A DNA stretch of 35,595 nucleotides, from NCBI GenBank assembly GCA_947586655.1, contig CANPXR010000002.1:1-35595 (forward strand), written 5' to 3'. The notes below the pieces were generated by a model. That model had not been told where the DNA came from, searched no databases, and was given only the letters and a program-made list of their open reading frames with translations. This stretch comes from an uncultured Bacilli bacterium. Its GTDB lineage: Bacteria; Bacillota_I; Bacilli_A; RF39; UBA660. Positions 10,432 through 35,595 of the stretch are shown in pieces; the first letter of the stretch is position 1; every line of letters starts with the position of its first letter. The position numbers and the translations under genes are program-made.

Positions 10432-10464
10432 AATAAAAAAAAAGGTATATCAACATACCTTTTT
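10432..10464 (-). terminator. Intra-locus rho-independent terminator + extended -10-like motif
   Basis: Minus strand reads AAAGGTATGTTGATATACCTTT followed by a T9 run, then ATTGTATAATTGG. The stem overlaps the stop codon of 10463-12334. Confidence 0.65.
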
Positions 10465-12334
10465 ACTCAACAAACTCAAGAATTGCATACGAGTCACTTT
10501 TTACTACCTTATACAACTGATTATCTTTTATATCACCATTTATAAATAATTTATTATATTGCTCTATAAATTGTTCATCAATATCAAATAAATAAACATA
10601 GTCATAATCTTTTATTAATTCTTGACGCCATGTATCACTTGTTTTATAAACGGTCCAAATATCTTCTTTAGAATAAGGTACTCCTATACTCCAAGCAAAA
10701 TTTTTATTCATTTTATAAGGCGTCAGTTCGTATTTTGCTATGTAATAATCTATTCCATTATCATTAGTAGATATGAAATATAAATAATCATTTTTCTTTA
10801 TGTACTTTTTAGATTTTTTACGAAACTCTTTATATGGTTCCCTAACATCTTTTGTTATATTAGAGTTTGCGGATGCAAAAACCGTTAAATTTAAAAACGT
10901 ACTAAAGCTAAAGTTTATGGTAAAGAACGCTAATAATAGCATTGTAAACACACCAAGATTTTTTTCATTTGAATGTGTGCAATCAACATAAAGGGCTATT
11001 ACTATGTATAATAATCCAAGCGCATAAGTTCCCATGTACCTAGTAAATGATGCTAGTCTAGCAGCTTCATACTCACTAAATATTGCTAAGTATGCTACTA
11101 ATAGTAAACCCGCGTAAGCTATTGCGCCCAATATACTAAATATAACTAAAACTTTATTAGTATTTTTACTTTCCTTTTTCGTATTTCGAATCAAAAAATA
11201 TCCAATTATGATTGTTATTATTAGAATAGTAACGTAAGATAGCGGAATAAAGGTACTTGTTAAGCTAGTATTAAAGGTAGCATCCGCAAAAGATGTTATA
11301 ACACCAGTTTGATAATCCATAAGGTTTAAAGTTATTAAATTTTTAACCGTGTTAATTATACTAGACCCACTACTTGAGCTATTAACGTTATTTAATGTTA
11401 ACGTAATAATCCAAACTATTTTAATTAAAAGAGCTGGAAGGATAGTTATAAATAACAAATAATTATCCTTTATGATATTTTTAATGTTAAATGTATTTCT
11501 AATAAACATGTTATCAATTAATATGATAGCAAAGGCTATTAGCATTAATACCAATCCAAAATCCTTTATTAAAATAAGCATCGAAAATGAAGCAATTAAA
11601 TTAATTATATCAAACTTATCTAGGCTTTTTTTACGATTAGAAAAATATGAATATAAACTATAGGCAAAAGCTAAACCTAAAACCGCATCAACGTATAACG
11701 TTTGATATACGGTAGGATAAAAGAACGTTGGAAGAAAAAGCAAGATGAAATATAAAACATAACTTAAAAAATTATTTTTCTTTTTGAAAGTTTTAAAGAT
11801 AGGAACAATAAGTGATATTATAATTAAATCCATCCCTACATAAAGCATTGATTCTCTAAATTCTCCGCATAGTTTTGTACAGAAATATTGAAATAAAGAA
11901 GTTCCAGAAAGATAAGTTTTTATCATAACCGTTGAGTCGCTACCCAAACCTAAATTTCCTAATCCATACATGTTTTTTACAACTAAAGCCCAATGCGAAA
12001 ACTCATCCCATGAATTAGCCAATTTACCAAATGACTGCCATACTATAATTAAATAACTAATTATAAATAAGATTAATCCAGTCGTTAAAACATTTTTATT
12101 CAAATCAATTTTTCTTTTAATAAATGAGTATACATTAATTATAAACAAAATCCAATTTAATATTAAAATAGTAATAAATCCAACATTTAATATAGAAAAA
12201 ACACCAAAAACAAACAAAATAAATATATATGAAAATATACTTAAGAATATTGTTTGTTCTATTTTCTTATTAAAAATAGTTGAATAAAATAATGACGTAT
12301 TTAATAATAAAAATATTAATAAAATATATTCCAT
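10463..12334 (-). CDS. Polytopic membrane protein (>10 TM) with C-terminal soluble domain; candidate GT-C-type extracytoplasmic glycosyltransferase; paralog of 20234-22111
   Basis: 623 aa. Shares SLFQYFCTKLCGEFRE (versus QLFQYFCMKILGNFQE in the paralog), the same topology and a C-terminal YDYVYLF-type domain. The family assignment is an inference. Confidence 0.45.
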   Translation of the reverse strand: MEYILLIFLLLNTSLFYSTIFNKKIEQTIFLSIFSYIFILFVFGVFSILNVGFITILILNWILFIINVYSFIKRKIDLNKNVLTTGLILFIISYLIIVWQSFGKLANSWDEFSHWALVVKNMYGLGNLGLGSDSTVMIKTYLSGTSLFQYFCTKLCGEFRESMLYVGMDLIIISLIVPIFKTFKKKNNFLSYVLYFILLFLPTFFYPTVYQTLYVDAVLGLAFAYSLYSYFSNRKKSLDKFDIINLIASFSMLILIKDFGLVLMLIAFAIILIDNMFIRNTFNIKNIIKDNYLLFITILPALLIKIVWIITLTLNNVNSSSSGSSIINTVKNLITLNLMDYQTGVITSFADATFNTSLTSTFIPLSYVTILIITIIIGYFLIRNTKKESKNTNKVLVIFSILGAIAYAGLLLVAYLAIFSEYEAARLASFTRYMGTYALGLLYIVIALYVDCTHSNEKNLGVFTMLLLAFFTINFSFSTFLNLTVFASANSNITKDVREPYKEFRKKSKKYIKKNDYLYFISTNDNGIDYYIAKYELTPYKMNKNFAWSIGVPYSKEDIWTVYKTSDTWRQELIKDYDYVYLFDIDEQFIEQYNKLFINGDIKDNQLYKVVKSDSYAILEFVE

Positions 12335-14894: not shown

Positions 14895-16226
14895 TTACTT
14901 ACTTCCTTTCACTCCAAGAATTTTATGTTTTAGATTCCTAATACGATTTATAAATTTATTAATAATATTAAAGTTTTTCGTGTTTTCATCACCTTTTATA
15001 TATTTTTGCTCAATTTCTGTTAACCTATTAGATAATAGTTTTTCCCTTTGTTGTAACAAAGTAATTTCATCTTCTAAGTGCTGTTTAATAGCTACGTTTT
15101 CATAATATATACTTAACATTCCACTAGCGAGTTTTTGTGAAAGTTCGATGTCATAAACTTTAGAATGAAACTTCTTATTTTTATCTAACAACTCTGAAAA
15201 ACCAATTTTCTCACCAAAGAAAAATTTAGTTCTTAAAGGGTTAATCATACTATTAACCGAACTGCAAAACCCTCCAATTAATAAATTCTTATTATCCCAT
15301 AATAATGGTTCTAACGGAGTTTTTTCAGGAATTATTGCTATATTATGATTTTTTAAGTAATCTTCTAAATATTTATTATCAGAAACTGGAAATAAAGGGT
15401 GTGCCTTAAATATAAATGTGTAATCTTCACCATAATCGCGTAAGACTTGATTAATCAAATTTTCATATATTATTGACGTAAGATGTTTAGTGCCAAAATC
15501 ATAAGTGCCAATAATAATTATATAATTATTATTAAGATTGGATACAATCTTAATGTCCCCGAATATACATTTTTTATATTTATCAGATAATTTAGAGTAC
15601 ATTTCCTCTATATTTAAATTTTTTAAATTCATTTCATTTTTGTATTCAGCGGATACATTTTTATTATATAGCAAATTTATAAAAGGAATTAAATATTCTA
15701 CATTTTTTTGAGTAGACAACCAAAAACAATAATTCTCTATTTTCAATAAATCATTGTCGTTATTTCCGTTTTTTATACCATTAATTAAATTTTCCCATCT
15801 AGATTTTTGATAATTTTTATCATCTTTTTTTATGTCATTATACATATACTGTGAAATATTTCCTTCACTTAACAAAATAATATTATTTATATCTTTAATT
15901 GAATTAGATAAAATAAATGGTTTTAAATAGAATTGTACCCTACTATCATCAATAAAAATATTAAATTTAGCTTTTTTATCATTTTTCTTTATTTCCTCTA
16001 TATTTAATTTTATATTATCGCATGTATTTTTTAAAAATTCAGTATCAAATCCTTTTGTTTGATAATAAAGTTTTAAATTTTTAGGACAATATTTACTATT
16101 TATATCGAAAAAATTATCTCTATAATACCAAATATAGCTAGGAGTATTATCTAAAAATACGTTTATTTGTGCATACATAGTTGGAACACTACCAAACACA
16201 ATGTAAAAATTATAGTTATTTGCCAT
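14895..16226 (-). CDS. Putative ulosonic-acid (sialyl-/Kdo-type) transferase-like protein with C-terminal coiled coil
   Basis: ~443 aa. Contains ..LLSEGNIS.. and ..FIFKAHPLFP.. about 155 residues apart, resembling the D/E-D/E-G and HP motifs of bacterial sialyl-/polysialyl-/beta-Kdo transferases. The C-terminal HLEDEITLLQQREKLLSNRLTEIEQKY is coiled-coil-like. It lies immediately upstream of the kdsB-type gene. I set the start at the ATG at 16226 (AAGGAG 8 nt upstream). The call is weak. Confidence 0.35.
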   Translation of the reverse strand: MANNYNFYIVFGSVPTMYAQINVFLDNTPSYIWYYRDNFFDINSKYCPKNLKLYYQTKGFDTEFLKNTCDNIKLNIEEIKKNDKKAKFNIFIDDSRVQFYLKPFILSNSIKDINNIILLSEGNISQYMYNDIKKDDKNYQKSRWENLINGIKNGNNDNDLLKIENYCFWLSTQKNVEYLIPFINLLYNKNVSAEYKNEMNLKNLNIEEMYSKLSDKYKKCIFGDIKIVSNLNNNYIIIIGTYDFGTKHLTSIIYENLINQVLRDYGEDYTFIFKAHPLFPVSDNKYLEDYLKNHNIAIIPEKTPLEPLLWDNKNLLIGGFCSSVNSMINPLRTKFFFGEKIGFSELLDKNKKFHSKVYDIELSQKLASGMLSIYYENVAIKQHLEDEITLLQQREKLLSNRLTEIEQKYIKGDENTKNFNIINKFINRIRNLKHKILGVKGSK

Positions 16227-16356
16227 TTTCACGTCTCCTTACTTAAATCTATTAATAAATAATTTAATTACCTAGTACCTTACGTTTCTCAAAATATTTT
16301 CAGAATTTTCTTAAATAAAACAAATTATATACATTTCAACTATTTTTATTAAACTC

Positions 16357-18633: not shown

Positions 18634-20232
18634 CTATATTACTTTTTTTAAATCACTATTTTTAATAGGATACAAACATTTTCCGGTAATAATGATTTTT
18701 TCATTTTCACTTTTTAATGGTACTTTTATCCACTCCTTATCTATAAATATATTATTTTTAGGTATACCACTTATATTTTTTACTCTTTTCTTTTTTTGAT
18801 TATTTAATACACAATAAATCCTTAAACTTTTTATTTTATATCCCGCTGAAAAAGATGGACTCCATAACATATAAGATGCGTTTTTAATTAACTCATACTC
18901 ATATCTAAAAGCACCCTTTTTAAATACCCTATTATCAACAAATGATTTAATGAGCTTATCTTTAGAATCCAAAAATTTTATTTCTGGTTTTATACATATA
19001 TGTATCACTTTTTCTTTTGATATTATTTTTTCAAGATTTATCTTTCTTTCTAACTCCTTATAATAATCACTTTTAGGTATGGTTTTTTTCCTGTAAGATA
19101 ATTTCAACAACTTAGAATCACTAGGCAAAAATAAATTTCCACTTATGTTTATTTTTTTTAGTATTTTACCTGGTTTTGTTGGAATGTACATGGTTGGACA
19201 CTCACCATTAAAGAAGAAAGTTCCATCTTTATTTAAAAATGAACCAAAAGCTAAGCCTAAATCAATTATTTCATTACTTTTATCTTTATAAGTAACACTT
19301 ACTTCTAAATTATTTATCGCAAAGCCCCACAAAATAGAAGGTTCCCAGCAAATTACGTCTCTTGCTCCAGTTACTTCATAAGTTTGTGAAAAATTACCTG
19401 GTTTAAATTTTTTATCATACAATTTATAAGATGAGCCTTTATGTTCTAACTCATAATTAGCTATTATAGCAGATTCCATTTCAAACGATGATATTATAGA
19501 TTGAGAAAGAGCACGCTCCCACTCATTATAAAATCCTCTTTTTGAAAAATCAAACTTTATGTTATTATCGTCAAAAATCTCTTTGGTTGCTTTCAACCAT
19601 TTTCCAGAGAACAAACCGTACTTCGTAAGGTCATAAGGAAATATTTGCGATTGATCATTTAGCATTATATAAAATTCGTCTTTTTTATATAACGTATTAC
19701 TTCGCTTAGTAGCATTAATTTCCCATTCCCAAATGTTTTCCTTGTAACCTTCGGTGTATTTTAACAACTGTTTTTTATTCCAAATTCCCGCTATGGCAGC
19801 TACTTTAGAATTAGAAACCGAAGACCTTTTCGCAAAGCCATCGTACATACAATTTTTAGAATCTGAGTATACTGGCCAAAACGTAAATGTAGCTATTTTT
19901 TCATCTTGTTTTAACCAATTTAAACAATCATTAATTTTATTAGAATTAACATAATCATAAAGGAAAAAATCATCTAACATTAAAATAACATAATCAGAAC
20001 TGATTTTTTTAAGAACGTCCGTTATACGTTCGGTCCAGGAACAATTAGGATTATCGGGATGAATATTTTTAATTTTAAAATATTTATTTTTATAATTTGT
20101 TGATTCTGTACTTAAGACTATATCATAAGGTAAGTCTTTCCAATATTTATTAAGCAACTTAAAAAATGGTTCTAATATATCAACATAAGAATCACAACTA
20201 TTTATTAGTAACGTACAAGAATTGCTAGCCAT
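18634..20232 (-). CDS. Unknown protein: GT-A-like N-terminal domain (DDF motif) + internally duplicated C-terminal beta-rich domain
   Basis: 532 aa with LLINSCDSYVDILEPFF...YVILMLDDFFLY. Two C-terminal segments share a pattern: Y.V.....V.CWEPS...GF.I..L.V.V versus YEYEL....YMLWSPSFSAGYKIKSLRIYCV. I recognise no family. Confidence 0.3.
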   Translation of the reverse strand: MASNSCTLLINSCDSYVDILEPFFKLLNKYWKDLPYDIVLSTESTNYKNKYFKIKNIHPDNPNCSWTERITDVLKKISSDYVILMLDDFFLYDYVNSNKINDCLNWLKQDEKIATFTFWPVYSDSKNCMYDGFAKRSSVSNSKVAAIAGIWNKKQLLKYTEGYKENIWEWEINATKRSNTLYKKDEFYIMLNDQSQIFPYDLTKYGLFSGKWLKATKEIFDDNNIKFDFSKRGFYNEWERALSQSIISSFEMESAIIANYELEHKGSSYKLYDKKFKPGNFSQTYEVTGARDVICWEPSILWGFAINNLEVSVTYKDKSNEIIDLGLAFGSFLNKDGTFFFNGECPTMYIPTKPGKILKKINISGNLFLPSDSKLLKLSYRKKTIPKSDYYKELERKINLEKIISKEKVIHICIKPEIKFLDSKDKLIKSFVDNRVFKKGAFRYEYELIKNASYMLWSPSFSAGYKIKSLRIYCVLNNQKKKRVKNISGIPKNNIFIDKEWIKVPLKSENEKIIITGKCLYPIKNSDLKKVI

Positions 20233-20233
20233 T

Positions 20234-22111
20234 TTATAACTCCTTCAGAATTATTTTATTTTCGCCTATGATTTCATATAGTGTTTCTTCTTTAATAGTA
20301 GTATCAAAAGCACTTTCTAAAAAAGTTTTCATTTTATCATCGTAGTTATAGACAAAAACATAATCATAATTTTCTTTTAATAAATATTTTACGAATTCTT
20401 CTTTATCCTGATAATTATTTACACTACCAAAGTAATTTTTAATTTTAATGTTATTATCTATAAGTAAATTATACAATCTATGATGCATAATAGGAAAATC
20501 TTCATAAGTAGCAAAAAATATATTAACCCCGTCTTTAGAAGGTTTAACTTTTGATAATATTTTTTTCTCATCTTTCATAGTCTCATTTAGTATTTTTTTA
20601 TTATAGTCATAAGAATAGTCGTTACCCTGCAACAGAGTTGAGTCTCCAATGCTTCTAAAAGGAATAAAAACTATAATTGATACTAAAACAATGGCTAATT
20701 TCATAAACTTTTTATCATGCTTTAATACGTTTTCAATAATTACCAAACCCAAGAACATAAAAATTGCTAAAAGGGTTGTGTTATTATAACGTTCAAAACA
20801 CAATACGTCACCATACTTTAAGGCATACAAAAATATAAGAGCAAACCAATAAGCAAAACTTGAACCAATTATTCCTACGGACGGAAACAAATATTTCAAG
20901 CGCTGTTTTTTAGAAGACAAAATAATTATCACAATTGCCGTTAGAACATAAAATAAAATAATATTTATATATGTTAGATATTTATTTATTTCTATTATGC
21001 TGGAGCCAACCATACTCCTAGTGTAAGAAGTGTATAAGTCATCTTTAATAATTCTTTTCTGTTCATCAGTTGGTTTAGTAATTAACTGAGTCATTTTACT
21101 AGGAGTAAACACGGAAGAAACACTACCAGCTTTATCATAAGTTCTTAAGCTTAAGCTCCAACTAAACATTAAAAACAATAAAAATATTATCGGAATAACT
21201 ATGAGTTTATAATTTTTTATCTTTCGATAGTCTTTATTTTTATAATAAAGTATTTCCGTTACGATGGAAACAAATATAGAAATCAAGCAAAAAATTATTC
21301 CGTTTTCTTTTAATAAATATACTAATGCTATTGATAATAAATAATTAATTAAATTAAATTTATTTTTATATGGATTCTTTGTTAATAAATAAAAATTATA
21401 TCCAATTGCTAAACCTAAAATAGAATCTACATATAAACTTTTATAATAAAAACCCCAATCAAGTCCGTTATTATAAAATATCATCGGTGTAAAAATAACA
21501 AATATCATGTATGGGATAATAACATAAAAATTTTTCCATTTTATATTTTTTAATAAAGGTAAAAATAATACGGCTCCTAATAAGCAAAAGGAAAAATGCA
21601 AATAATTTTCTTGAAAATTTCCCAAGATTTTCATACAAAAGTACTGAAATAGTTGAATTCCTGGTAAATATGTATCCATTCCTTTAATAGCGTATAATAA
21701 AGTGTCATTACCAAATTGAATATTATCAGTGTAATACAATGCTTTAGGATATGCACCCCATAGCCTTAATTCGTCAAATAAATATAATAAGGAATCTTTT
21801 GTTAAATACCATATTATTAAATATAATAATGTAAAGCATAAAGCTCCAGGAGTAATTAATCTTTTTAAGGCTTCTTTAACGTTCTTTTTCCTTACTAAAT
21901 AGAATGCTGATGTAGCATAGAGTAAAAAAGATATAAAAAGAGCTAAAAATAATCCTATTTTTAAAAGGTCAATAATATAAAATAAATATAAAAAGAATAT
22001 AACTCCTAAGAAATATAAGGGAATACCTTCTTCAAAATTTTTATCTAAAACACAGGCGCAAAAAACTCCAAAGGATGAAAGAACTATAAATAAAAGTATA
22101 AAACCTAACAT
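20234..22111 (-). CDS. Polytopic membrane protein, paralog of 10463-12334 (candidate GT-C-type transferase)
   Basis: 625 aa with >10 hydrophobic helices, the QLFQYFCMKILGNFQE block and a C-terminal soluble domain ending ..NYDYVFVYNYDD... Confidence 0.45.
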   Translation of the reverse strand: MLGFILLFIVLSSFGVFCACVLDKNFEEGIPLYFLGVIFFLYLFYIIDLLKIGLFLALFISFLLYATSAFYLVRKKNVKEALKRLITPGALCFTLLYLIIWYLTKDSLLYLFDELRLWGAYPKALYYTDNIQFGNDTLLYAIKGMDTYLPGIQLFQYFCMKILGNFQENYLHFSFCLLGAVLFLPLLKNIKWKNFYVIIPYMIFVIFTPMIFYNNGLDWGFYYKSLYVDSILGLAIGYNFYLLTKNPYKNKFNLINYLLSIALVYLLKENGIIFCLISIFVSIVTEILYYKNKDYRKIKNYKLIVIPIIFLLFLMFSWSLSLRTYDKAGSVSSVFTPSKMTQLITKPTDEQKRIIKDDLYTSYTRSMVGSSIIEINKYLTYINIILFYVLTAIVIIILSSKKQRLKYLFPSVGIIGSSFAYWFALIFLYALKYGDVLCFERYNNTTLLAIFMFLGLVIIENVLKHDKKFMKLAIVLVSIIVFIPFRSIGDSTLLQGNDYSYDYNKKILNETMKDEKKILSKVKPSKDGVNIFFATYEDFPIMHHRLYNLLIDNNIKIKNYFGSVNNYQDKEEFVKYLLKENYDYVFVYNYDDKMKTFLESAFDTTIKEETLYEIIGENKIILKEL

Positions 22112-28333: not shown

Positions 28334-29512
28334 ATGATAACATATACTTCCGTAAAGGAGAATATAAGTAAGATGACTCAAATAAATCAGAAAATTGTTG
28401 ATATGATTATGCAGAAAAAAACAATTGAAGAAATATCACAGGAATTAAATTTAAGTTATAAGCAAATCTTTAATAGAGTTTCTTTTTTAGAAAATTATGG
28501 ATATGTTGTAAAAAGGAAGTATAATACTAATGGTATTATATCTTATACACTAGGTAATGATAACTGTTATCATTTGGATAATTTATTTGAATTACAAAAT
28601 AATAATAATACTTTTAAAATAATAGTAATTTCAGATTTACACCTGGGAAATATAATAAGTGATGAAGAAGCACTAAATACAATTTTTGACTATTGCAGTA
28701 AAAATTCAATTCACGTAATTATAAACTGTGGAGACATAATAGATGGGGTTTTTTCTAGCACACAGTGTATTATACCTCCAGAAGAACAAGTAGAATACTT
28801 GATAAAAAGGTATCCTTTTGATAAAAATATTTTTACTTTGTATACTCTTGGTGATCATGATAATTCATTATATACAAGTAAAAAAATTTCTCTTACTTAT
28901 GCATTAAAAAGAAGAAGGCATGACATATGCTCTATTTCTCCTTATGCTACGCCAACGCAAAACTACGTTATAAAGTTAAATAATAATCATATTATGGTTT
29001 CTCATCAAGCATCGATTTTTGAAGAAAATAACCTACAAAACATAAAATTACATTTAGTAGGACATAATCACACCTCTAAAACATTATTAGAAATTAATAA
29101 TTCAAGAAATACGACGCCAAGAATATATGTACCACCGCTTTGCAAAGCAAGTAATAGTGGGCAAATAAATACACCAAGGGCTTTAGAACTTACTATATAC
29201 ACGGACGAAAAATTTAATTTTAAGCATATTTCAAAAAAAGACTTGATTATTTTAGAAAATATGGTTTTAAATACAGGAGAAACAATAATAAATTATAGCA
29301 AAAATGAATTAAATCCTTTCGATTTAGATAATAGGAAGCACTACGTTGATGATAAAGTAAATCCTAAAAATATGTCAGAAAAAAAAGAAATTGGTGATCT
29401 AAATGATGAACAAAGGCAAAAATTAAAAGATTTCTTTAAAGGTAGCGAAAGCTCTAAAAAATTAGAGAGCATGATAAAAAAAGCAAGGAAAGGAAAACAT
29501 AAATGGCAATAA
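28334..29512 (+). CDS. Winged-HTH + calcineurin-like metallophosphoesterase fusion with Lys-rich C-terminal tail
   Basis: N-terminal ..IVDMIMQKKTIEEISQELNLSYKQIFNRVSFLENYGYVVKR (wHTH). MPE motifs are intact: ISDLHLGN, CGDIIDG, LGDHDN, VGHNHT. The true start may be the internal MTQINQK. Confidence 0.7.
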   Translation: MITYTSVKENISKMTQINQKIVDMIMQKKTIEEISQELNLSYKQIFNRVSFLENYGYVVKRKYNTNGIISYTLGNDNCYHLDNLFELQNNNNTFKIIVISDLHLGNIISDEEALNTIFDYCSKNSIHVIINCGDIIDGVFSSTQCIIPPEEQVEYLIKRYPFDKNIFTLYTLGDHDNSLYTSKKISLTYALKRRRHDICSISPYATPTQNYVIKLNNNHIMVSHQASIFEENNLQNIKLHLVGHNHTSKTLLEINNSRNTTPRIYVPPLCKASNSGQINTPRALELTIYTDEKFNFKHISKKDLIILENMVLNTGETIINYSKNELNPFDLDNRKHYVDDKVNPKNMSEKKEIGDLNDEQRQKLKDFFKGSESSKKLESMIKKARKGKHKWQ

Positions 29513-29552
29513 AAAAAGCAAATCACTCCAATTTGAAGTGGTTTGTTTTTTT
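29512..29552. terminator. Bidirectional terminator between convergent genes
   Basis: AAAAAAAG-CAAATCAC-tccaatttgaa-GTGGTTTG-TTTTTTTAT: an 8-bp stem with one G.U, with an A-run on one side and a T-run on the other. Confidence 0.7.
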
Positions 29553-30666
29553 ATATTACTATAGCTATCATGTTATTAGAACCTTTATTAACAACCTTAG
29601 TTAAGGTGGTTTGCAGTTTATGCCTTATATTGTCTGGCATAAGTGATAATTTACCCCTTATACCTTCTTGTACGATTACGTCTAGACTTCTTCCAAACAT
29701 CTCACTTTTCCATACGCTATCCGGGTCCGTATCATAATTTTTCATCAAATTATCGATAAGTTCCTTACTTTGTGTTTCAGAACCAATAATAGGTTCAAAC
29801 GTTGACTCAACGTCTACTCTTATCATATGAATAGAAGGGGCGACAGCCTTTAATTTAACACCATACCTCGTTCCTTGTTTTATTATCTCTGGAGTATCTA
29901 ATTTCATGTCTTTAATGGTTGGAAATGAAGTCCCATATCCTGTTTGTTTTACCATTTTTAAGGCTTCCTTAAACTGTCCATACTCTTCTTTGGTTTCGTT
30001 AAATTCTTGGAATAAGGAAATTAGTTTTGCTTTAGAATCTATATTAGTTCCAATTATTTCATTTAATACATCATTATACAATCCATCTGGAGCTTCTAAG
30101 TTAATTGTTATTTCTCCAGTTGCGGTATTAACCTCAGATAAATAAGCCTTCGATATGTGTTCTGTTCCTTGGAAATGTCCAATTATGGTGTCAACGTCCC
30201 TTACTTTATCCACGTCAATAACGCTTTCTTTTATCTTCTCAACATATTCCTTTTTTAAATAATGTTTATGAGATAAACAAGCTATCCAATCTGGCATTTT
30301 AACGTTTACGCTTAAAACTGGGAACTCAAATAATGCTTCTTTTAATATGTTATATATTTCTTTTTCACTCATTGCCTCGACACTAACTGGTATTACCGGA
30401 ACATTGTGTTCGGTTCTTAAACTCTCTGCTAATTTTTCCGTATCAGGATGATTAGGATGAACAGAGTTTAAAACAACTATAAATGGTTTACCTATTTCCT
30501 TTAATTCACTTATTACCTGATTTTCAGCTTGAACGTAGTCTTTTCTTTCAATTTCTCCAATACTACCATCGGTAGTAACCACAATACCAATCGTAGAATG
30601 ATCCCTAATTACCTTTTCAGTTCCTATTTCCGCTGCTTCAACAAAAGGAATTTCCTCATCATACCA
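29551..30666 (-). pseudogene. spoIVA: spoIVA 3' segment only (about codons 122-492): gene split by an inserted element
   Basis: The frame reads WYDEEIPFVEAAEIGTEKVIRDHSTIGIVVTTDGSIGEIERKDY...KLKAVAPSIHMIRVDVES...VVNKGSNNMIAIVI*, colinear with SpoIVA from the TPWY(E/D)E motif to the C-terminus. Upstream of the Trp codon the frame is unrelated (..KNRSY) and hits a stop 27 codons up. No Walker A segment (GxxRTGKST) occurs anywhere in the window. The track's GTG 'start' at 30582 is an internal Val. Confidence 0.9.
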
Positions 30667-30672
30667 GTATGA
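30659..30672. repeat. Putative hybrid attachment site (attL/attR) of the serine recombinase
   Basis: TCATAC-CA-GTATGA: perfect 6-bp inverted arms around a non-palindromic central dinucleotide. The centre (30665-30666) falls in the Trp codon, where SpoIVA homology ends. Confidence 0.6.
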
Positions 30673-30698
30673 CCTGTTTTTGTGATACCTAATTTTAT

Positions 30699-30721
30699 TT
30701 TTAAAAATTGCTTGGAAGCAA
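30699..30721 (-). terminator. Terminator after the recombinase gene, before the att junction
   Basis: Minus strand reads TTGCTTCCAAGCAA + TTTTTAAAAATAAAATT. The stem is short. Confidence 0.45.
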
Positions 30722-30734
30722 CTCGTATTTTTAC

Positions 30735-32321
30735 CTATATTAATACTTCACTTTTTTTAATTCTATAATGAATTTCTAGTTTTTTATCTTTCGTTACATA
30801 TATTTTATCTATTAATCTATTCATGATTTCTCTTGTTGGATTTTTCATATCTAGAAAACTTTTAATAATATCTAAATATTCTACATAACAAGAAGAATCA
30901 TCATTAATACTAGATATTTCATTTTGTAATTGTTCTAGTTTATCTTTTGCAGTTTTAATATCTTCTTCAGTAGCATTAAATAATCTTTGATAAGTTTCTA
31001 CACTTATAACATTATTAAATTTATCATCATATAAAGAGTCTTGTTTTCTTTTTAAATCATTTATTGTATGATTTAATTCTTCTATCTTTTTTAGTTTATC
31101 TGCTTTTGGATCAACATATTGGCTTTTAATAATATTTTCAAATTCTTCTTTATCATTAATATATTGATTAGCCATAGTACTTAACTTGTCATAGACTGTG
31201 TTTTCTAGTTTTGTATAGTTAATATAGTGAGAAAAGCATATATCATACTTACTAAACTTACGATAGTTATTACAATTCATTGTGACTCTATCTCTTTTCT
31301 TATCATAACTAATACTCATTCTAGCACCACAATCTTTACAAAATACTAAATCAGATAAAACATAATCAACATTTCTTCGTTCAGGATTATAATTATTTGA
31401 TGAATCTTTAATAGATTGTGCGATTTCAAATGTTTTCCTATCTACAAGTGGTTCGTGTGCATTTTCTTTAATACACCATTCACTTTCAGGAACACTTTTT
31501 CTTTTCTTAATCTTATAATTCACTTTTTGAAATCTGTGTTGAATTAAATCTCCAATATAAACTCTATTTTTGATGATATTACTGACAGATGTGTGTTTCC
31601 ATATTTCAGGATGGTCAAATCTATTTAATTTTGAATCAGAGTATTTATACATAACTGGTGTAGGTAATTCTTCTCTTGTTAGTATTTCAGCAATTTGTGA
31701 GCTACCATAACCTGCAACATATAAATCAAAAATTCTTTTTACTACAGGAGCAGTTTCTGGATCAGGTACTAGTTTGTGTTTGTCTAAAGGATCTCTCATA
31801 TAACCATAAGGTGCAGAACTTCCACAAAACTTTCCATCTTTTTTCATTTGAAGTAAGTTTGAACGAACTTTTTTAGAAATATCTTTTGCATACATATCAT
31901 TCATACTTAATCTAAATGGCATCATATCAGAGCCACTTGTTTCAAAAAAAGTATCTATATCATCGTTTACGGCAACATATCTAACATCGTTTTCTGGGAA
32001 AAATGTTTCAACATAATAACCAGTCATTATATGGTCACGACCTAATCTTGATAAATCTTTAGTAATAACCATGTTTATTTTTCCATTTTCAATGTCATTT
32101 AACATTCTCTTAAACTCTGGGCGTTCAAAATTTGTTCCTGTATAACCATCATCTACATAAATATCAACTGCAACTAATCCTTGTGCTTTTAAATAACCAA
32201 TTAATAAACTTCTTTGATTAGTGACACTTTCTGATTCCATATCATCACCATCTTCACGAGATAGTCTTATATAAATGGCTATTTTAAAAATCGTATTGTC
32301 TATTGCATACCTACTATACAT
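30735..32321 (-). CDS. Large serine recombinase (SpoIVCA/SprA/TnpX class)
   Basis: 528 aa. The resolvase catalytic domain has IAIYIRLSREDGD..SESVTNQR and VITKDLSRLGRD. There is a recombinase domain, a zinc ribbon (CKDCGARMS...NCNNYRK....CFSH) and a C-terminal coiled coil (KLKKIEELNHTINDLKRKQDSL). The SD GAAAGGAG lies inside the end of the upstream small ORF. Confidence 0.92.
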   Translation of the reverse strand: MYSRYAIDNTIFKIAIYIRLSREDGDDMESESVTNQRSLLIGYLKAQGLVAVDIYVDDGYTGTNFERPEFKRMLNDIENGKINMVITKDLSRLGRDHIMTGYYVETFFPENDVRYVAVNDDIDTFFETSGSDMMPFRLSMNDMYAKDISKKVRSNLLQMKKDGKFCGSSAPYGYMRDPLDKHKLVPDPETAPVVKRIFDLYVAGYGSSQIAEILTREELPTPVMYKYSDSKLNRFDHPEIWKHTSVSNIIKNRVYIGDLIQHRFQKVNYKIKKRKSVPESEWCIKENAHEPLVDRKTFEIAQSIKDSSNNYNPERRNVDYVLSDLVFCKDCGARMSISYDKKRDRVTMNCNNYRKFSKYDICFSHYINYTKLENTVYDKLSTMANQYINDKEEFENIIKSQYVDPKADKLKKIEELNHTINDLKRKQDSLYDDKFNNVISVETYQRLFNATEEDIKTAKDKLEQLQNEISSINDDSSCYVEYLDIIKSFLDMKNPTREIMNRLIDKIYVTKDKKLEIHYRIKKSEVLI

Positions 32322-32324
32322 TTT

Positions 32325-32507
32325 TTATCTCCTTTCAGTAGACAACACATTCACTTTATTAGTTGAATTAATTATACTATTTTTTGCGTTCGATTTAAAT
32401 ACTTTTGATGAATTTTTATAAGCCATATAATATTTATATATACAACTTTTTAAGACTTCTTTTAAATCACAACCATTACTATCATAAAATTCTAGTGTTT
32501 CATACAT
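32325..32507 (-). CDS. 60-aa protein translationally linked to the recombinase; candidate accessory/directionality factor
   Basis: GGAGGA SD 7 nt upstream of the ATG. Its stop codon lies 1 nt before the recombinase ATG, and its last codons (GAA AGG AGA TAA) form the recombinase SD. No family recognised. Confidence 0.4.
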   Translation of the reverse strand: MYETLEFYDSNGCDLKEVLKSCIYKYYMAYKNSSKVFKSNAKNSIINSTNKVNVLSTERR

Positions 32508-32582
32508 GATTATTCCTCCACAATGAATTTTATGTGTAATAGTTTATAAAAATTACTATTCTTCATAAATTATCACACCTTT

Positions 32583-33002
32583 CTATTGATATTCTTTTAG
32601 CATATCTTCCATTTCTTTAAGTTCTTCTTCAGTGGGTGGAATTGCTTCACATCTTTTTCCATCCCAAACTTCAACACCGTCTGAATCAAGTCTTATATGA
32701 GGACCTTTTCTTCCGTTCATCATTTCATCTTTATTGTCTGATATATCAGTCACAGTAATAAAACTTTGTATTCTTTCATTTGTAATATAAGAATTAAGAT
32801 AACCTTTAACAAAAACTCTTGTTCCTTTAACAAAAAAATCTTTATATATTTCATAAAGATTTCGGTTAATATTAAAACTAGCATAAACTTTCCTTTTATC
32901 ATATTTAAGAGTGGTTAAACCAAACTTAATATAATCTTTATTATTATCTGTCACATTATTAATAGTTCCAGATATTATAATTTCGTTTAAATCAATTTCC
33001 AT
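32583..33002 (-). CDS. OB-fold single-stranded-DNA-binding-like protein with acidic C-terminal tail
   Basis: 139 aa. LNEIIISGTINNV...KFGLTT....KVYASFNI.R.LYEIYKDFFVKGTRVFVKGYL has the pattern of SSB beta-strands. The tail reads PTEEELKEMEDMLKEYQ, and there is no canonical DDDIPF. Confidence 0.4.
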   Translation of the reverse strand: MEIDLNEIIISGTINNVTDNNKDYIKFGLTTLKYDKRKVYASFNINRNLYEIYKDFFVKGTRVFVKGYLNSYITNERIQSFITVTDISDNKDEMMNGRKGPHIRLDSDGVEVWDGKRCEAIPPTEEELKEMEDMLKEYQ

Positions 33003-33152
33003 TTTTATAACTTCCTTTCTTTTTAATCTTTTTAAAGATTTAAATTATTAAAATAATTTTAAATTTATATTATCTATTAATATTATTTATTATATTATTT
33101 ATTCTGTTAGAAGATACTTGCTATACTCACTAGCAGTATCTTGCTATTACAT

Positions 33153-33434
33153 CTAGCAGAAATCTGCTAAATAGATTCTTCTTATATTAGGTTCATTTTC
33201 AACTCTAATATATTTTTTTGTTCTTAATGATGTTATGCAACTAGTAATCGTTCTTTTAGATACTTTTAAAAGATTACTTAAATACTTATTACTTGCATAA
33301 CAAAATCCCTCTTGCATAGATAGGGTATTAATTAAACCCATTAATAGTTTAGTAGTAGAAGATAGTTCTTCATCTAATAAAACTATTGTAGGCACCTCTA
33401 TATGCTTTAATTTAGTAATATCGCTATTATTCAT
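33153..33434 (-). CDS. Small winged-HTH protein (phage/plasmid regulator or replication-organiser-like)
   Basis: ..FCYASNKYLSNLLKVSKRTITSCITSLRTKKYIRV... I set the start at MNNSDI (GGAAAGGAG 9 nt upstream), because the track's TTG start overlaps a terminator T-run. Paralog-like to 33722-33988. Confidence 0.5.
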   Translation of the reverse strand: MNNSDITKLKHIEVPTIVLLDEELSSTTKLLMGLINTLSMQEGFCYASNKYLSNLLKVSKRTITSCITSLRTKKYIRVENEPNIRRIYLADFC

Positions 33435-33465
33435 ATTATCAATCTCCTTTCCTTTAAATTTAGGC

Positions 33466-33497
33466 AATAAAAAAACTTGTAAACACTACTTACAAGT
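33466..33497 (-). terminator. Rho-independent terminator/attenuator inside the leftward operon
   Basis: Minus strand reads ACTTGTAA-GTAGTGT-TTACAAGT + TTTTTTATTG, sitting immediately upstream of the SD of 33153-33434. Confidence 0.6.
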
Positions 33498-33554
33498 CAT
33501 ACTAATAATGACAATAAAATCCCTGTGTGAGATAAATCTCACTAAATAGGTTGC

Positions 33555-33631
33555 TTGAAGTAAAACATACATAACATATTTCAATCCCTTTTATTCTTTT
33601 ATTTCGTTCTTTGAAATATGTTTTACTTCAA
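33555..33631. repeat. Long interrupted inverted repeat (12 + 9 bp arms, 9-nt bulge, 26-nt loop)
   Basis: TTGAAGTAAAAC[ATACATAAC]ATATTTCAA - 26 nt - TTGAAATATGTTTTACTTCAA. A second perfect palindrome, GTGAGAT-AA-ATCTCAC, lies nearby at ~33524-33539. Confidence 0.7.
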
Positions 33632-33721
33632 ACTAGTTCATCTTATATTTCTATAAGATAGGTTCTAATATAAATCTACGAACATTTACTGAACCTTTAT
33701 TTGTTAGTGATTTAATCTTTT

Positions 33722-33988
33722 CTAACAAATCTCGTATGTGTATAATCCTCGGTCGTATTCATTGAACCTTATATATTTGTTATCTTCTAATATTTTTAGG
33801 TTCTTCTTGAATCCAACATTTGTTATACTCAATTTCTTTTGAACTCTCCCGATACTTATACTTGTGAATTCACATCTTTGGGATTGTTCCGCACAGAGTA
33901 TTTTGTATATCAGCTTCGTTTCAAACTTGATATTTTTATCTCTCCATACTCTTGGATCAATTAATTCTAGTTGTTTTTTTAATCTCAT
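33722..33988 (-). CDS. Small winged-HTH protein, first gene of the leftward operon
   Basis: 88 aa with ..FTSISIGRVQKKLSITNVGFKKNLKILEDNKYIRF.., the same layout as 33153-33434 (..KYIR..). AAGGAGG SD upstream. Confidence 0.45.
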   Translation of the reverse strand: MRLKKQLELIDPRVWRDKNIKFETKLIYKILCAEQSQRCEFTSISIGRVQKKLSITNVGFKKNLKILEDNKYIRFNEYDRGLYTYEIC

Positions 33989-34018
33989 ACATTTGATTTC
34001 CTCCTTTCTTTTTCTATG

Positions 34019-34149
34019 TTACCCATTTAATTTAAAAGTGGGTTCATTTGGAAACATATTTAATATATCATGCTAATTACTATATTGTCAACACTTTTTT
34101 ACCCATTTATTGAAATTATGTTGACTTTTTTACCCACTGGGTGTATTAT
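34019..34149. promoter_or_regulatory. Divergent promoter/operator region (lysogeny-switch-like)
   Basis: Rightward promoter: TTGACT (34121) - 17 nt - TATTAT (34144), then GAGGTGA SD and the ATG at 34171. Leftward promoter: TTGACA (34091-34086) - 18 nt - TATATT. The repeated ACCCA/TGGGT motif occurs as TTACCCATTTAA (34019), AAGTGGGT (34036-43), TTACCCATTTAT (34099) and the palindrome ACCCA-C-TGGGT (34132-34142), which lies inside the rightward promoter spacer. Confidence 0.65.
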
Positions 34150-34170
34150 TATGGTGTGAGGTGAATTTCT

Positions 34171-34674
34171 ATGCTAGAAAAAAATATCGGCGAAGTTATT
34201 GCTGAAGCTAGAGAAAAGAAAGGTTTATCGCAAAGACAACTTGCGAAACTTGCAAAGATTAATAACTCTGAACTTTCTAAAATAGAATCAGGTATAAGAA
34301 AAGATCCTAGTCCTAAAATATTAAGAAAGATAAGTAATATAATAGATGTTAATTATAGTGACTTAATGTATATGATAGGTTTAGGATTAGAAGTGACACA
34401 ACTTAATTATTTTGTTAAGAGTCATTATGCTAGTTTAAATCTAGAACAATTAGATACTGCTGAAATAAATGTTTTAGGAAGTATAGAAAATTCTGAAAGT
34501 ATAGTTTCTACATGTAAAAAAGAATTAGAAAAAGATGATTTACCAGAAGAACAAAAAGAGTTATTAATACATACTATCGAAGATCATACATATCAAATTA
34601 ATTCATCAAAAGAAATAATCAAACTTATTCAAAGTTTAAAAGTAAAGGGGAGAAATAAAAATGCTAAAAAGTAA
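34171..34674 (+). CDS. XRE-family HTH repressor-like protein with non-peptidase C-terminal domain
   Basis: IGEVIAEAREKKGLSQRQLAKLAKINNSELSKIESGIRKDPSPKILRKIS is a classic HTH_3. The C-terminal ~95 aa are helical with no S24 Ser/Lys motif visible. Confidence 0.85.
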   Translation: MLEKNIGEVIAEAREKKGLSQRQLAKLAKINNSELSKIESGIRKDPSPKILRKISNIIDVNYSDLMYMIGLGLEVTQLNYFVKSHYASLNLEQLDTAEINVLGSIENSESIVSTCKKELEKDDLPEEQKELLIHTIEDHTYQINSSKEIIKLIQSLKVKGRNKNAKK

Positions 34675-35089
34675 TATAATTAAAAAATTATTAGTAGTAG
34701 TGAATTTTATTGTAGGATTATTTTTAATACTAACTATCATATTTAATAATAAACTTACTTATTCTTTATATTGGATTTTAATTCCTATTTTAATATTTTT
34801 AATTGTAATGTTTATATATGAGGTAGATAAAGGGTTAATTGAAATAAATCAAAACGAGGGCAAGTCAATTAGAAGATCATATAATGATATAACAGTTGTA
34901 TCTACTGTATTCTATGGATTAATATATTTAGGAATAGAGTTTATTGATATGATAAATAGTGATGTTAGAAATAATATTTATTTAGTATGTGGTTTCTTTG
35001 CAATTACACTTTTATATGAATTATTTGTATTCATGGCAATTAAGAGTGCTAAAAAAGAAACATCGGAATTACTAAATAAGAAAAAATAA
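34661..35089 (+). CDS. Small 4-TM membrane protein co-transcribed with the repressor
   Basis: 142 aa with four hydrophobic segments. It overlaps the XRE gene by 14 nt. A branched hairpin + T-run at ~35139-35187 follows. Confidence 0.5.
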   Translation: MLKSNIIKKLLVVVNFIVGLFLILTIIFNNKLTYSLYWILIPILIFLIVMFIYEVDKGLIEINQNEGKSIRRSYNDITVVSTVFYGLIYLGIEFIDMINSDVRNNIYLVCGFFAITLLYELFVFMAIKSAKKETSELLNKKK

Positions 35090-35278
35090 ATTTATGAAGT
35101 AAATTTATAATCCTTACTTTTGCATAGCAAAAGAAAAAAATAACCTTTTACCCTTTCGTTAGATTAGGTATTAGGTTATTTTTATTTAAAGAATACGTGG
35201 CACGTTTTGTTGCTTTAGCAATGAAAGTGGCGATAGTATTCTTTCTTTTTTATGTAGTCGCAAGACAAAATAAAAAAG

Positions 35279-35458
35279 AGCAACATTCACTTACGATAGT
35301 TTGTGAAATGTTGCTTATTGGGTTTCAAAAGGGTGTCCCTTTGCACACTATTCCTAGTTGGCAAAATGCCGACTTGGTAGTGTGTTACTATCTTGTCTTA
35401 AAGATAGTCTTTCACGAAAATCCATTAGTTATGTAATTTCTTTTGGATTTTCGTTTTC
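35279..35458 (+). ncRNA. Candidate structured RNA (five consecutive hairpins, last one terminator-like); class unknown
   Basis: The hairpins are: AGCAACATTCAC/GTGAAATGTTGCT (35279-35315); AAAGGG-TGT-CCCTTT (35328-35342); CACACTA..CCTAGTTGGC-AAAAT-GCCGACTTGG-TAGTGTG (35344-35384); ACTATCT/AGATAGT (35387-35408); and CGAAAATCCA/TGGATTTTCG + TTTTC (35415-35458). The region is locally more G+C-rich than its flanks. Confidence 0.35.
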
Positions 35459-35595
35459 AATAGGTTTTGATTTTTATATTTAATTTATTCAGAATATCTT
35501 AATATTACGATTTAATCGATAAATTGTAATTTGTACTAATAATTTTCTTTGTTTATTATACTTAATAAAGAATAAAAAGTCATTAATAAACCACT

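Follow-up and report, generated by a model that had tools for sequence, protein, structure and literature searches.

The minus strand of our window, the whole 35,595-nucleotide stretch of DNA analysed here, carries a long same-strand chromosomal gene cluster for surface polysaccharide between positions 900 and 27433, a context that confirms the low-coordinate side of the junction described below as host DNA. The cluster genes encode an RmlA-like nucleotidyltransferase, a dehydratase, an FdtA-like isomerase, a DegT aminotransferase, a GNAT acetyltransferase, a CMP-sugar cytidylyltransferase, a UDP-GlcNAc 2-epimerase and many glycosyltransferases, while four large open reading frames of the cluster (10463-12334, 14895-16232, 18634-20232 and 20234-22111) had no Pfam match. 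A 392-residue protein with a calcineurin-like phosphoesterase domain is encoded on the plus strand at 28334-29512, convergent to the 3' segment of spoIVA, the gene for the spore coat base layer. The gene found downstream of spoIVA varies by host species and may encode HU, an AI-2E transporter, an SNF2 helicase or glycosyltransferases. The spoIVA segment borders an inserted element with a large serine recombinase gene, and the features at this junction and beyond it are as follows.

29551-30666, minus strand: spoIVA 3' segment from the Trp codon to the stop, 371 codons plus stop, without frameshift
30640-30664, minus strand: B' half-site, the host arm of the hybrid site, of approximate extent; it varies with the host allele while the junction is fixed
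30659-30672, no strand: 14-bp palindrome, of which 30659-30664 is host spoIVA and 30667-30672 the inner element end (P arm)
30664-30666, minus strand: TGG Trp codon, the sole sequence common to attL, attR, attB and attP
30665-30666, minus strand: favoured crossover dinucleotide, coding-strand TG and plus-strand CA; attP dyad centre, inside the 3-bp identity of attL and attR
30667-30691, minus strand: P half-site, the element arm, with the outer motif GGTATCAC at 30682-30689 (GTGATACC on the plus strand)
30667-35595, minus strand: recombinase-proximal 4.9 kb of the inserted element, which runs past the window end
30735-32321, minus strand: large serine recombinase of 528 residues with Resolvase, Recombinase and Zn-ribbon domains and the N-terminal sequence IYIRLSRED
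32325-32507, minus strand: 60-residue open reading frame, a candidate directionality factor, ending 3 nt before the recombinase start codon
32526-32556, minus strand: conserved promoter-like motif in two blocks, GTAATTTT-N14-CATAAAATT, located 5' of the small open reading frame

We compared the spoIVA segment with intact genes and proteins. From the Trp codon on, the 371-residue product matches all three SpoIVA Pfam domains, the ATPase profile being covered at 122-237 (its last 116 positions) and the middle and C-terminal domains being complete. Intact 491-residue SpoIVA proteins from metagenomes, one of which is named as Candidatus Aphodocola, align with the product over 100% of its length at 92% identity. 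At the nucleotide level, identity to the intact spoIVA genes of the closest relatives (L021-L024) is 82% over 1110 bases downstream from the TGG, and 32-35%, which is background, over the 60 bases upstream of it. This fall places the break in homology exactly where the initial annotation had put it, with SpoIVA kept on the WYDE side and lost on the SY side. The minus-strand frame reads ...K N R S Y W Y D E E I P F V E A A E I G... (KNRSY-WYDEEIPFVEAAEIG), with TCA TAC (SY) directly 5' of TGG TAT GAT GAG (WYDE). Intact relatives read ...ACACCT TGG TATGATGA..., the insertion is accompanied by no target duplication, and spoIVA is split at codon 120.

In some hosts (L008, L010 and L025) we found spoIVA split a second time, farther downstream, by a different element. 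The second element of L008 (12546-19605) has its own 546-residue serine recombinase, and GAAGTTGAAAGT is common to both of its junctions, near SpoIVA residue 405. The second element in L010 and L025, located downstream of the first, contains a Type ISP restriction enzyme gene. The spoIVA gene looks like a hot spot of several recombinase systems.

The element part in the window encodes, in addition to the genes listed above, a 139-residue protein, an HTH_36 protein, an 88-residue protein, an HTH_3 repressor-like protein and a 142-residue protein, the last of which matched no family. Copies in other host species match the whole of 30667-35595 at 99.7-99.98% identity. Full copies measure 10.2-13.3 kb and consist of a spoIVA 5' fragment (about 126 residues), a gene for a 327-residue protein, a MobV relaxase gene and a variable cargo module, followed by the conserved block that the window covers, then the recombinase gene and the spoIVA 3' fragment. 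The MobV relaxase, which lies beyond the part covered by the window and was scored in other copies, reaches 113 bits against a cutoff of 100, and the gene lists of the full copies contain no type IV secretion system genes. Judged by its gene content, the element is an integrative mobilizable element of the MobV type with swappable cargo. Because a near-identical element adjoins differing host spoIVA sequences, it must have spread recently across species, and its near-identity in these species is indirect evidence of transfer between hosts.

The cargo was seen in other copies, that of the window's copy being located beyond 35595. It comprises a TetM/W/O/S-family ribosomal protection protein in L025 (10886-12808), a VanG-type D-Ala-D-Ser ligase together with a VanT racemase and VanW-, VanY- and two-component-system-like genes in L029 (10924-18544), an APH(3') phosphotransferase in L003 (4459-5665) and an ABC-F ribosomal protection-like protein in L027 (12450-13952), and in additional copies we found a P-type ATPase, a cation efflux protein or IS elements. 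On the contig shared by L033 and L009, a Fic-domain gene replaces the gene for the 327-residue protein upstream of the relaxase and is followed by a second Mob_Pre relaxase gene; we found no P' arm within this locus, which may represent two mobilizable elements in tandem. Several of the carriers L011-L020 are labelled 'Tenericutes', 'Mollicutes' or 'Mycoplasmatota' yet encode spoIVA, and related loci encode SpoVIF and a SASP too. Such labels probably reflect an older taxonomy of uncultured low-GC Bacilli, not wall-less non-sporulators.

The recombinase contains the domains PF00239 (14-164), PF07508 (188-306) and PF13408 (322-380), all scoring above the Pfam thresholds, and an RLSRED serine motif is visible in its sequence. 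Among proteins of solved structure, it is nearest to the TnpX catalytic domain (E 3e-27, the best PDB match) and to SprA/YokA of SPbeta (E 6e-23, the closest full-length one). We found the identical recombinase indexed in 3182 blocks of public assemblies. It is located directly upstream of a spoIVA 3' fragment in 10 of the 10 loci listed of these 3182, with the genes beyond varying, and it adjoins 13 distinct spoIVA alleles at the same base. A spoIVA 3' fragment at the same TGG also accompanies relatives with 88% (L035), 79% (L036), 74% (L039), 70% (L038), 68% (L042) and 60% (L040 and L041) identity. The elements with these 60-88% relatives are of different types, among them a conjugative one with VirD4- and VirB4-like genes (L038) and a prophage-like one (L036); that of L039 is minimal, with 5.9 kb and a single surface-protein gene. 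Our search of an annotated plasmid collection returned no match, and the best recombinases in an annotated phage collection were at most 35% identical.

At the other end of the element, the initial annotation had predicted a partner site with the same core and with ACN CCN on the spoIVA side. Such a junction, ...ACN CCN TGG followed by GTGTTGTTGAATAAGTGATACC (TGG, then GTGTTG...), is present in 17 loci with 13 distinct host arms, all from other copies of the element. The far arm GTGTTGTTGAATAAGTGATACC occurs in 10 species-representative genomes, always after ACN CCN TGG, the codons for T-P-W; all of them are MAGs of uncultured gut bacteria, with the labels Bacilli, Firmicutes, Clostridium sp., Tenericutes or Mollicutes. 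In L025 the attL (minus strand, about 1787-1808) reads TGG TTGTTGTTG in place of TGG GTGTTGTTG, a single-base variant at the second base after the TG, and this position thus tolerates change. Removal of the element at the TGG in silico yields a single open SpoIVA frame of about 490 residues, ...TPWY/F..., in all 7 loci for which both ends are available, so that joining at this position does not lead to the frameshift that would have spoken against the proposed site. These 7 loci again hold other element copies, the rebuilt gene of the window not being among them, and the junction sequences of L035, L039 and L041 likewise read in frame. We looked for a copy of the P' arm in the window and found none; the partner site of this insertion is located outside the window, as the element extends past the last base, 35595.

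Serine-recombinase att sites are imperfect inverted repeats around a 2-bp crossover dinucleotide, the asymmetry of which sets polarity. The attL of the other copies reads ...CCN TGG G... and attR ...TAC TGG T..., leaving TGG as the only common core, with a mismatch on either side. We rebuilt attP in four variants (window/L004, L035, L039 and L041), and all of them follow the pattern GGTATCAC-N15-TG-N15-GTGATACC, with the attP junction of our element being ...ACAGGTCATAC TG GGTGTTGTTGAA.... The locus thus combines the domains of a large serine recombinase, a very short core without duplication and an attP that forms an imperfect repeat on a non-palindromic dinucleotide. The earlier reading of the junction as a hybrid attachment site is borne out by the adjacent recombinase, the TGG-only core, the partner site and the symmetric attP. 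Positions 30659-30672 are very probably the centre of a hybrid attR, so named by the orientation of spoIVA, with the P arm first, then the core and the B' arm. It would have been left by a large serine recombinase when a mobile element was inserted at the Trp codon of the spoIVA TPWY motif.

We next consider the sequences flanking the recombinase gene. In every variant, a small open reading frame of 45-70 residues (MYE..EFY...DLK..LK.CI..YY) ends just before the recombinase start or overlaps it. Its identity among variants is 47-78%, and comparison with Pfam, with PHROGs and with PDB profiles, including the entries that contain SprB, gave no meaningful match. Upstream of it, the motif GTwmTTTT-N14-CATAAnATT is kept with both blocks and their spacing in 5 of 6 variants. 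The -10-like word CATAANATT is not rare when taken alone (10 found against 7.8 expected), and a scan of the element half for sigma-70 promoters and terminators gave no more sites than shuffled sequence. A CATA-type -10 is the consensus of mother-cell sigma factors, which the second block of our motif resembles in its letters. On the other side of the gene, a hairpin followed by a T-run (GAGTTGCTTCCAAGCAATTTTT, 30705-30724, minus strand) is located between the recombinase stop and the attachment site. The hairpin is weak by itself (-6.5 kcal/mol, z = -1.3), and its stem is kept with altered bases in L035 (ATTGCTTGATAGCAAT), L036 (GTTGCTTTAGAGCAAT) and L038 (GTTGCTAAAATTAGCAAC). It is probably the recombinase terminator and would shield the spoIVA 3' segment from read-through.

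Elements in sigK, spsM, spoVFB, spoVR, gerE and yabG are excised to rebuild the interrupted gene (PMC4191935, PMC5595907, PMC10747680, PMC5025042), and spoIVA has been used as a sigma-E target (PMC5025042). Our element shares structural features with skin, as it interrupts the coding sequence of a sporulation gene expressed in the mother cell and as its removal in silico restores the frame in the 7 loci described above. We infer that spoIVA may be rebuilt by excision in the mother cell during sporulation, since the target is kept down to 60% recombinase identity across element types and since both the small open reading frame and the CATA-type motif are conserved. In the mechanism that we propose, integration by the large serine recombinase at the Trp codon within the conserved T-P-W-Y motif splits spoIVA, and excision in the sporulating mother cell would rebuild the gene. 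The small open reading frame upstream of the recombinase would be transcribed from a sigma-E/sigma-K-like promoter and would act as a directionality factor aiding excision. Taken further, the two genes may form a module that is specialised on the spoIVA Trp codon and switched by mother-cell sigma factors, so that the element would leave only the terminal mother-cell chromosome and would be inherited by the spore. This module would carry mobilizable resistance, conjugative, prophage-like and minimal single-cargo elements among uncultured gut Bacilli. We put this extended reading forward as plausible, but tentatively.

The main alternative is that the insertion represents a dead end, with spoIVA merely providing a conserved landing pad. 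The gene would then stay split, the carriers would be asporogenous and no developmental excision would take place. The element is near-identical across species, and the intact halves of spoIVA could thus simply mean that it arrived recently. In addition, the excised circular attP junction ACAGGTCATACTGGGTGTTGTTGAA was found in neither the viral nor the JGI metagenome contigs scanned, collections that may not hold the element, and nothing in the sequence proves sporulation-specific control. However, all members of the recombinase family, including those with 60% identity, use this one codon, whatever the type of element, and this family-wide constancy speaks for long-term tolerance by the hosts. 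The elements described as splitting sporulation genes are excised to rebuild them (PMC4191935, PMC5595907, PMC10747680), and in our case a conserved small open reading frame and a CATA-type box precede the recombinase. We regard a dead-end insertion as somewhat less likely than not, but as a serious alternative to mother-cell excision.

Which two bases are exchanged within the TGG was a second point of our analysis. The initial annotation had placed the crossover at 30665-30666, and this position remains the favoured one. However, attL, attR and every recovered attP carry TGG, and the identity at the junctions can thus not separate TG (30665-30666) from GG (30664-30665). The rebuilt attP sites are more informative. 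Characterised serine-integrase attP sites are symmetric about their crossover dinucleotide. Centred on TG, our four attP variants show 13, 15, 19 and 13 dyad matches of 25, and the other centres tried reach at most 9. L039 contains a perfect inner repeat, TTATCC-TG-GGATAA, and the outer motif GGTATCAC is located exactly 15 nt from the TG in six recombinase variants, in which the intervening 15 nt differ. Together with the symmetry rule, this dyad peak makes TG the best assignment, and on the pattern of the rebuilt sites we consider it highly likely that TG (30665-30666) is the crossover dinucleotide, where the recombinase would make its usual 2-bp staggered cut at the centre of attP. By comparison, symmetry is low in attB (5/28). 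In structural work on LI integrase, the zinc-ribbon motif of attB is reportedly located about 5 bp nearer to the centre than in attP. In the B' arm, a 5-bp shift gave the best, though weak, agreement with the outer motif (4-6 of 9) in 6 out of 6 alleles tried; in the B arm, agreement was best at an 11-bp shift.

A hybrid serine-recombinase site with its crossover at GG, bases 2-3 of the Trp codon, is formally allowed, because attL and attR share the TGG and a G follows the TG in all four rebuilt attP variants; GG is also non-palindromic. We sought a relative with A, C or T as the first base of the P' arm, but the four recovered attP variants all have G at this position. A scan of JGI metagenomes for attR followed by a non-G base (off-target) and a plain attR scan of viral contigs gave no match, in collections that may not hold the element. 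Yet a GG centre would leave the outer motifs unevenly spaced, at 16 nt and 14 nt, in all four attP variants and would lower the dyad matches to 6-9 of 25 as compared with 13-19 for TG, and the inner repeat of L039 is centred on TG. A crossover at GG is thus unlikely.

The palindrome that first drew attention to the junction reads TCATACCAGTATGA, or TCATAC-CA-GTATGA, at 30659-30672, with perfect 6-bp inverted arms and CA between them, just as had been reported. Its position on the junction stands, but its perfect arms are not a property of the system. This AT-rich window contains 38 perfect 6-2-6 inverted repeats where a first-order model predicts 30 +/- 5, and the palindrome by itself therefore carries no meaning. 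Next to the same element, the perfect arms measure 6 bp in 5/13 distinct host alleles, 4 bp in 6/13, 3 bp in 1/13 and 2 bp in 1/13, and the 6-bp arms are confined to hosts with SpoIVA Trp-Tyr-Asp. The element arm ..GGTCATAC is invariant and adjoins 13 differing host arms, so that ATAC-TG-GTAT is the only general part of the palindrome. As arm length varies with the host allele, we consider the 14-bp palindrome a host-specific by-product that is not required. It arises as the inner element end (..TCATAC) happens to complement, in inverted orientation, the host G of Trp, the TAT of Tyr and the GA of Asp, and extension to 6-bp arms requires a host Asp after Tyr. That the perfect palindrome is instead the recognised core, needed for recombination, is most improbable: although serine-recombinase sites are inverted repeats, if imperfect ones, and a 6-2-6 repeat is centred on an independently defined junction with a chance of only about 8e-4 per position, the identical recombinase is found at the same codon with perfect arms of only 2-4 bp in 8/13 host alleles, the attR of L038 (recombinase 70% identical; ..TTCACGG TGG TTCCCC) is by reading without inner symmetry, the host arm is set by the Trp-Tyr-Asp codons, and natural insertions suggest equal integration into attB with Ser or Gln after Tyr.

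Our analysis provides a base-precise, testable definition of the sites, with attP as GGTATCAC-N15-TG-N15-GTGATACC and attB as the T-P-W-Y codons of spoIVA, and with six natural recombinase variants open to comparison. Because the same element is found essentially unchanged, with resistance cargo, across many uncultured gut species, the attachment site can serve as a marker for tracking resistance genes (tetracycline, VanG-type, aminoglycoside and ABC-F) among spore-forming gut bacteria. Before a split spoIVA in such genomes is taken to mean that sporulation has been lost, the element should be checked for. If mother-cell excision holds true, spoIVA would be a new addition to the genes known to be rearranged in development, and the first of them tied to widely spread, resistance-carrying mobilizable elements.

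We finally compared our element to systems described previously. A literature search linked spoIVA to no recombinase-mediated insertion; spoIVA is a new target, and the recombinases form a well-defined, widely spread family with the standard mechanism. With its insertion, spoIVA joins sigK, spsM, spoVFB, spoVR, gerE and yabG as a sporulation gene split by recombinase-bearing elements. Among mobile elements, the clostridial mobilisable transposons Tn4451/Tn4453 are similar in that TnpX is the best PDB match of our catalytic domain (E 3e-27), and Tn4451 combines a large serine recombinase with a Mob/Pre-type relaxase and a resistance gene. TnpX has about 700 residues and uses many insertion sites centred on a GA dinucleotide, whereas our recombinase has 528 residues and targets one codon of one gene. 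In the skin system, sigK of Bacillus subtilis and Clostridioides difficile is split by an element encoding SpoIVCA (PMC5025042; 10.1101/2022.02.25.481979). As in skin, a large serine recombinase gene is found at the element edge beside the 3' gene segment, the insertion is located inside a mother-cell sporulation gene and precise joining restores the frame (PMC5025042; 10.1101/2022.02.25.481979). In contrast to skin, a prophage remnant, our element targets spoIVA rather than sigK, is near-identical across many species and is a MobV mobilizable element with resistance cargo, for which developmental excision is proposed. The SPbeta prophage splits spsM, and its small directionality factor SprB controls SprA-mediated excision in sporulation (PMC5499854, PMC4191935). 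SprA (YokA) is the closest full-length solved relative of our recombinase (E 6e-23), but our small open reading frame has no detectable similarity to known proteins and, unlike the separately placed SPbeta factor, ends 3 nt before the recombinase gene or overlaps it. The intervening elements gin (gerE), vfbin (spoVFB), vrin (spoVR) and yin (yabG) are of the same general kind, and gin shows that such an element need not be a prophage (PMC5595907, PMC10747680). The junction overlap of gin is 9 bp (PMC5595907) as compared with 3 bp here, and none of these four elements targets spoIVA or has been reported as part of a family serving several element types.
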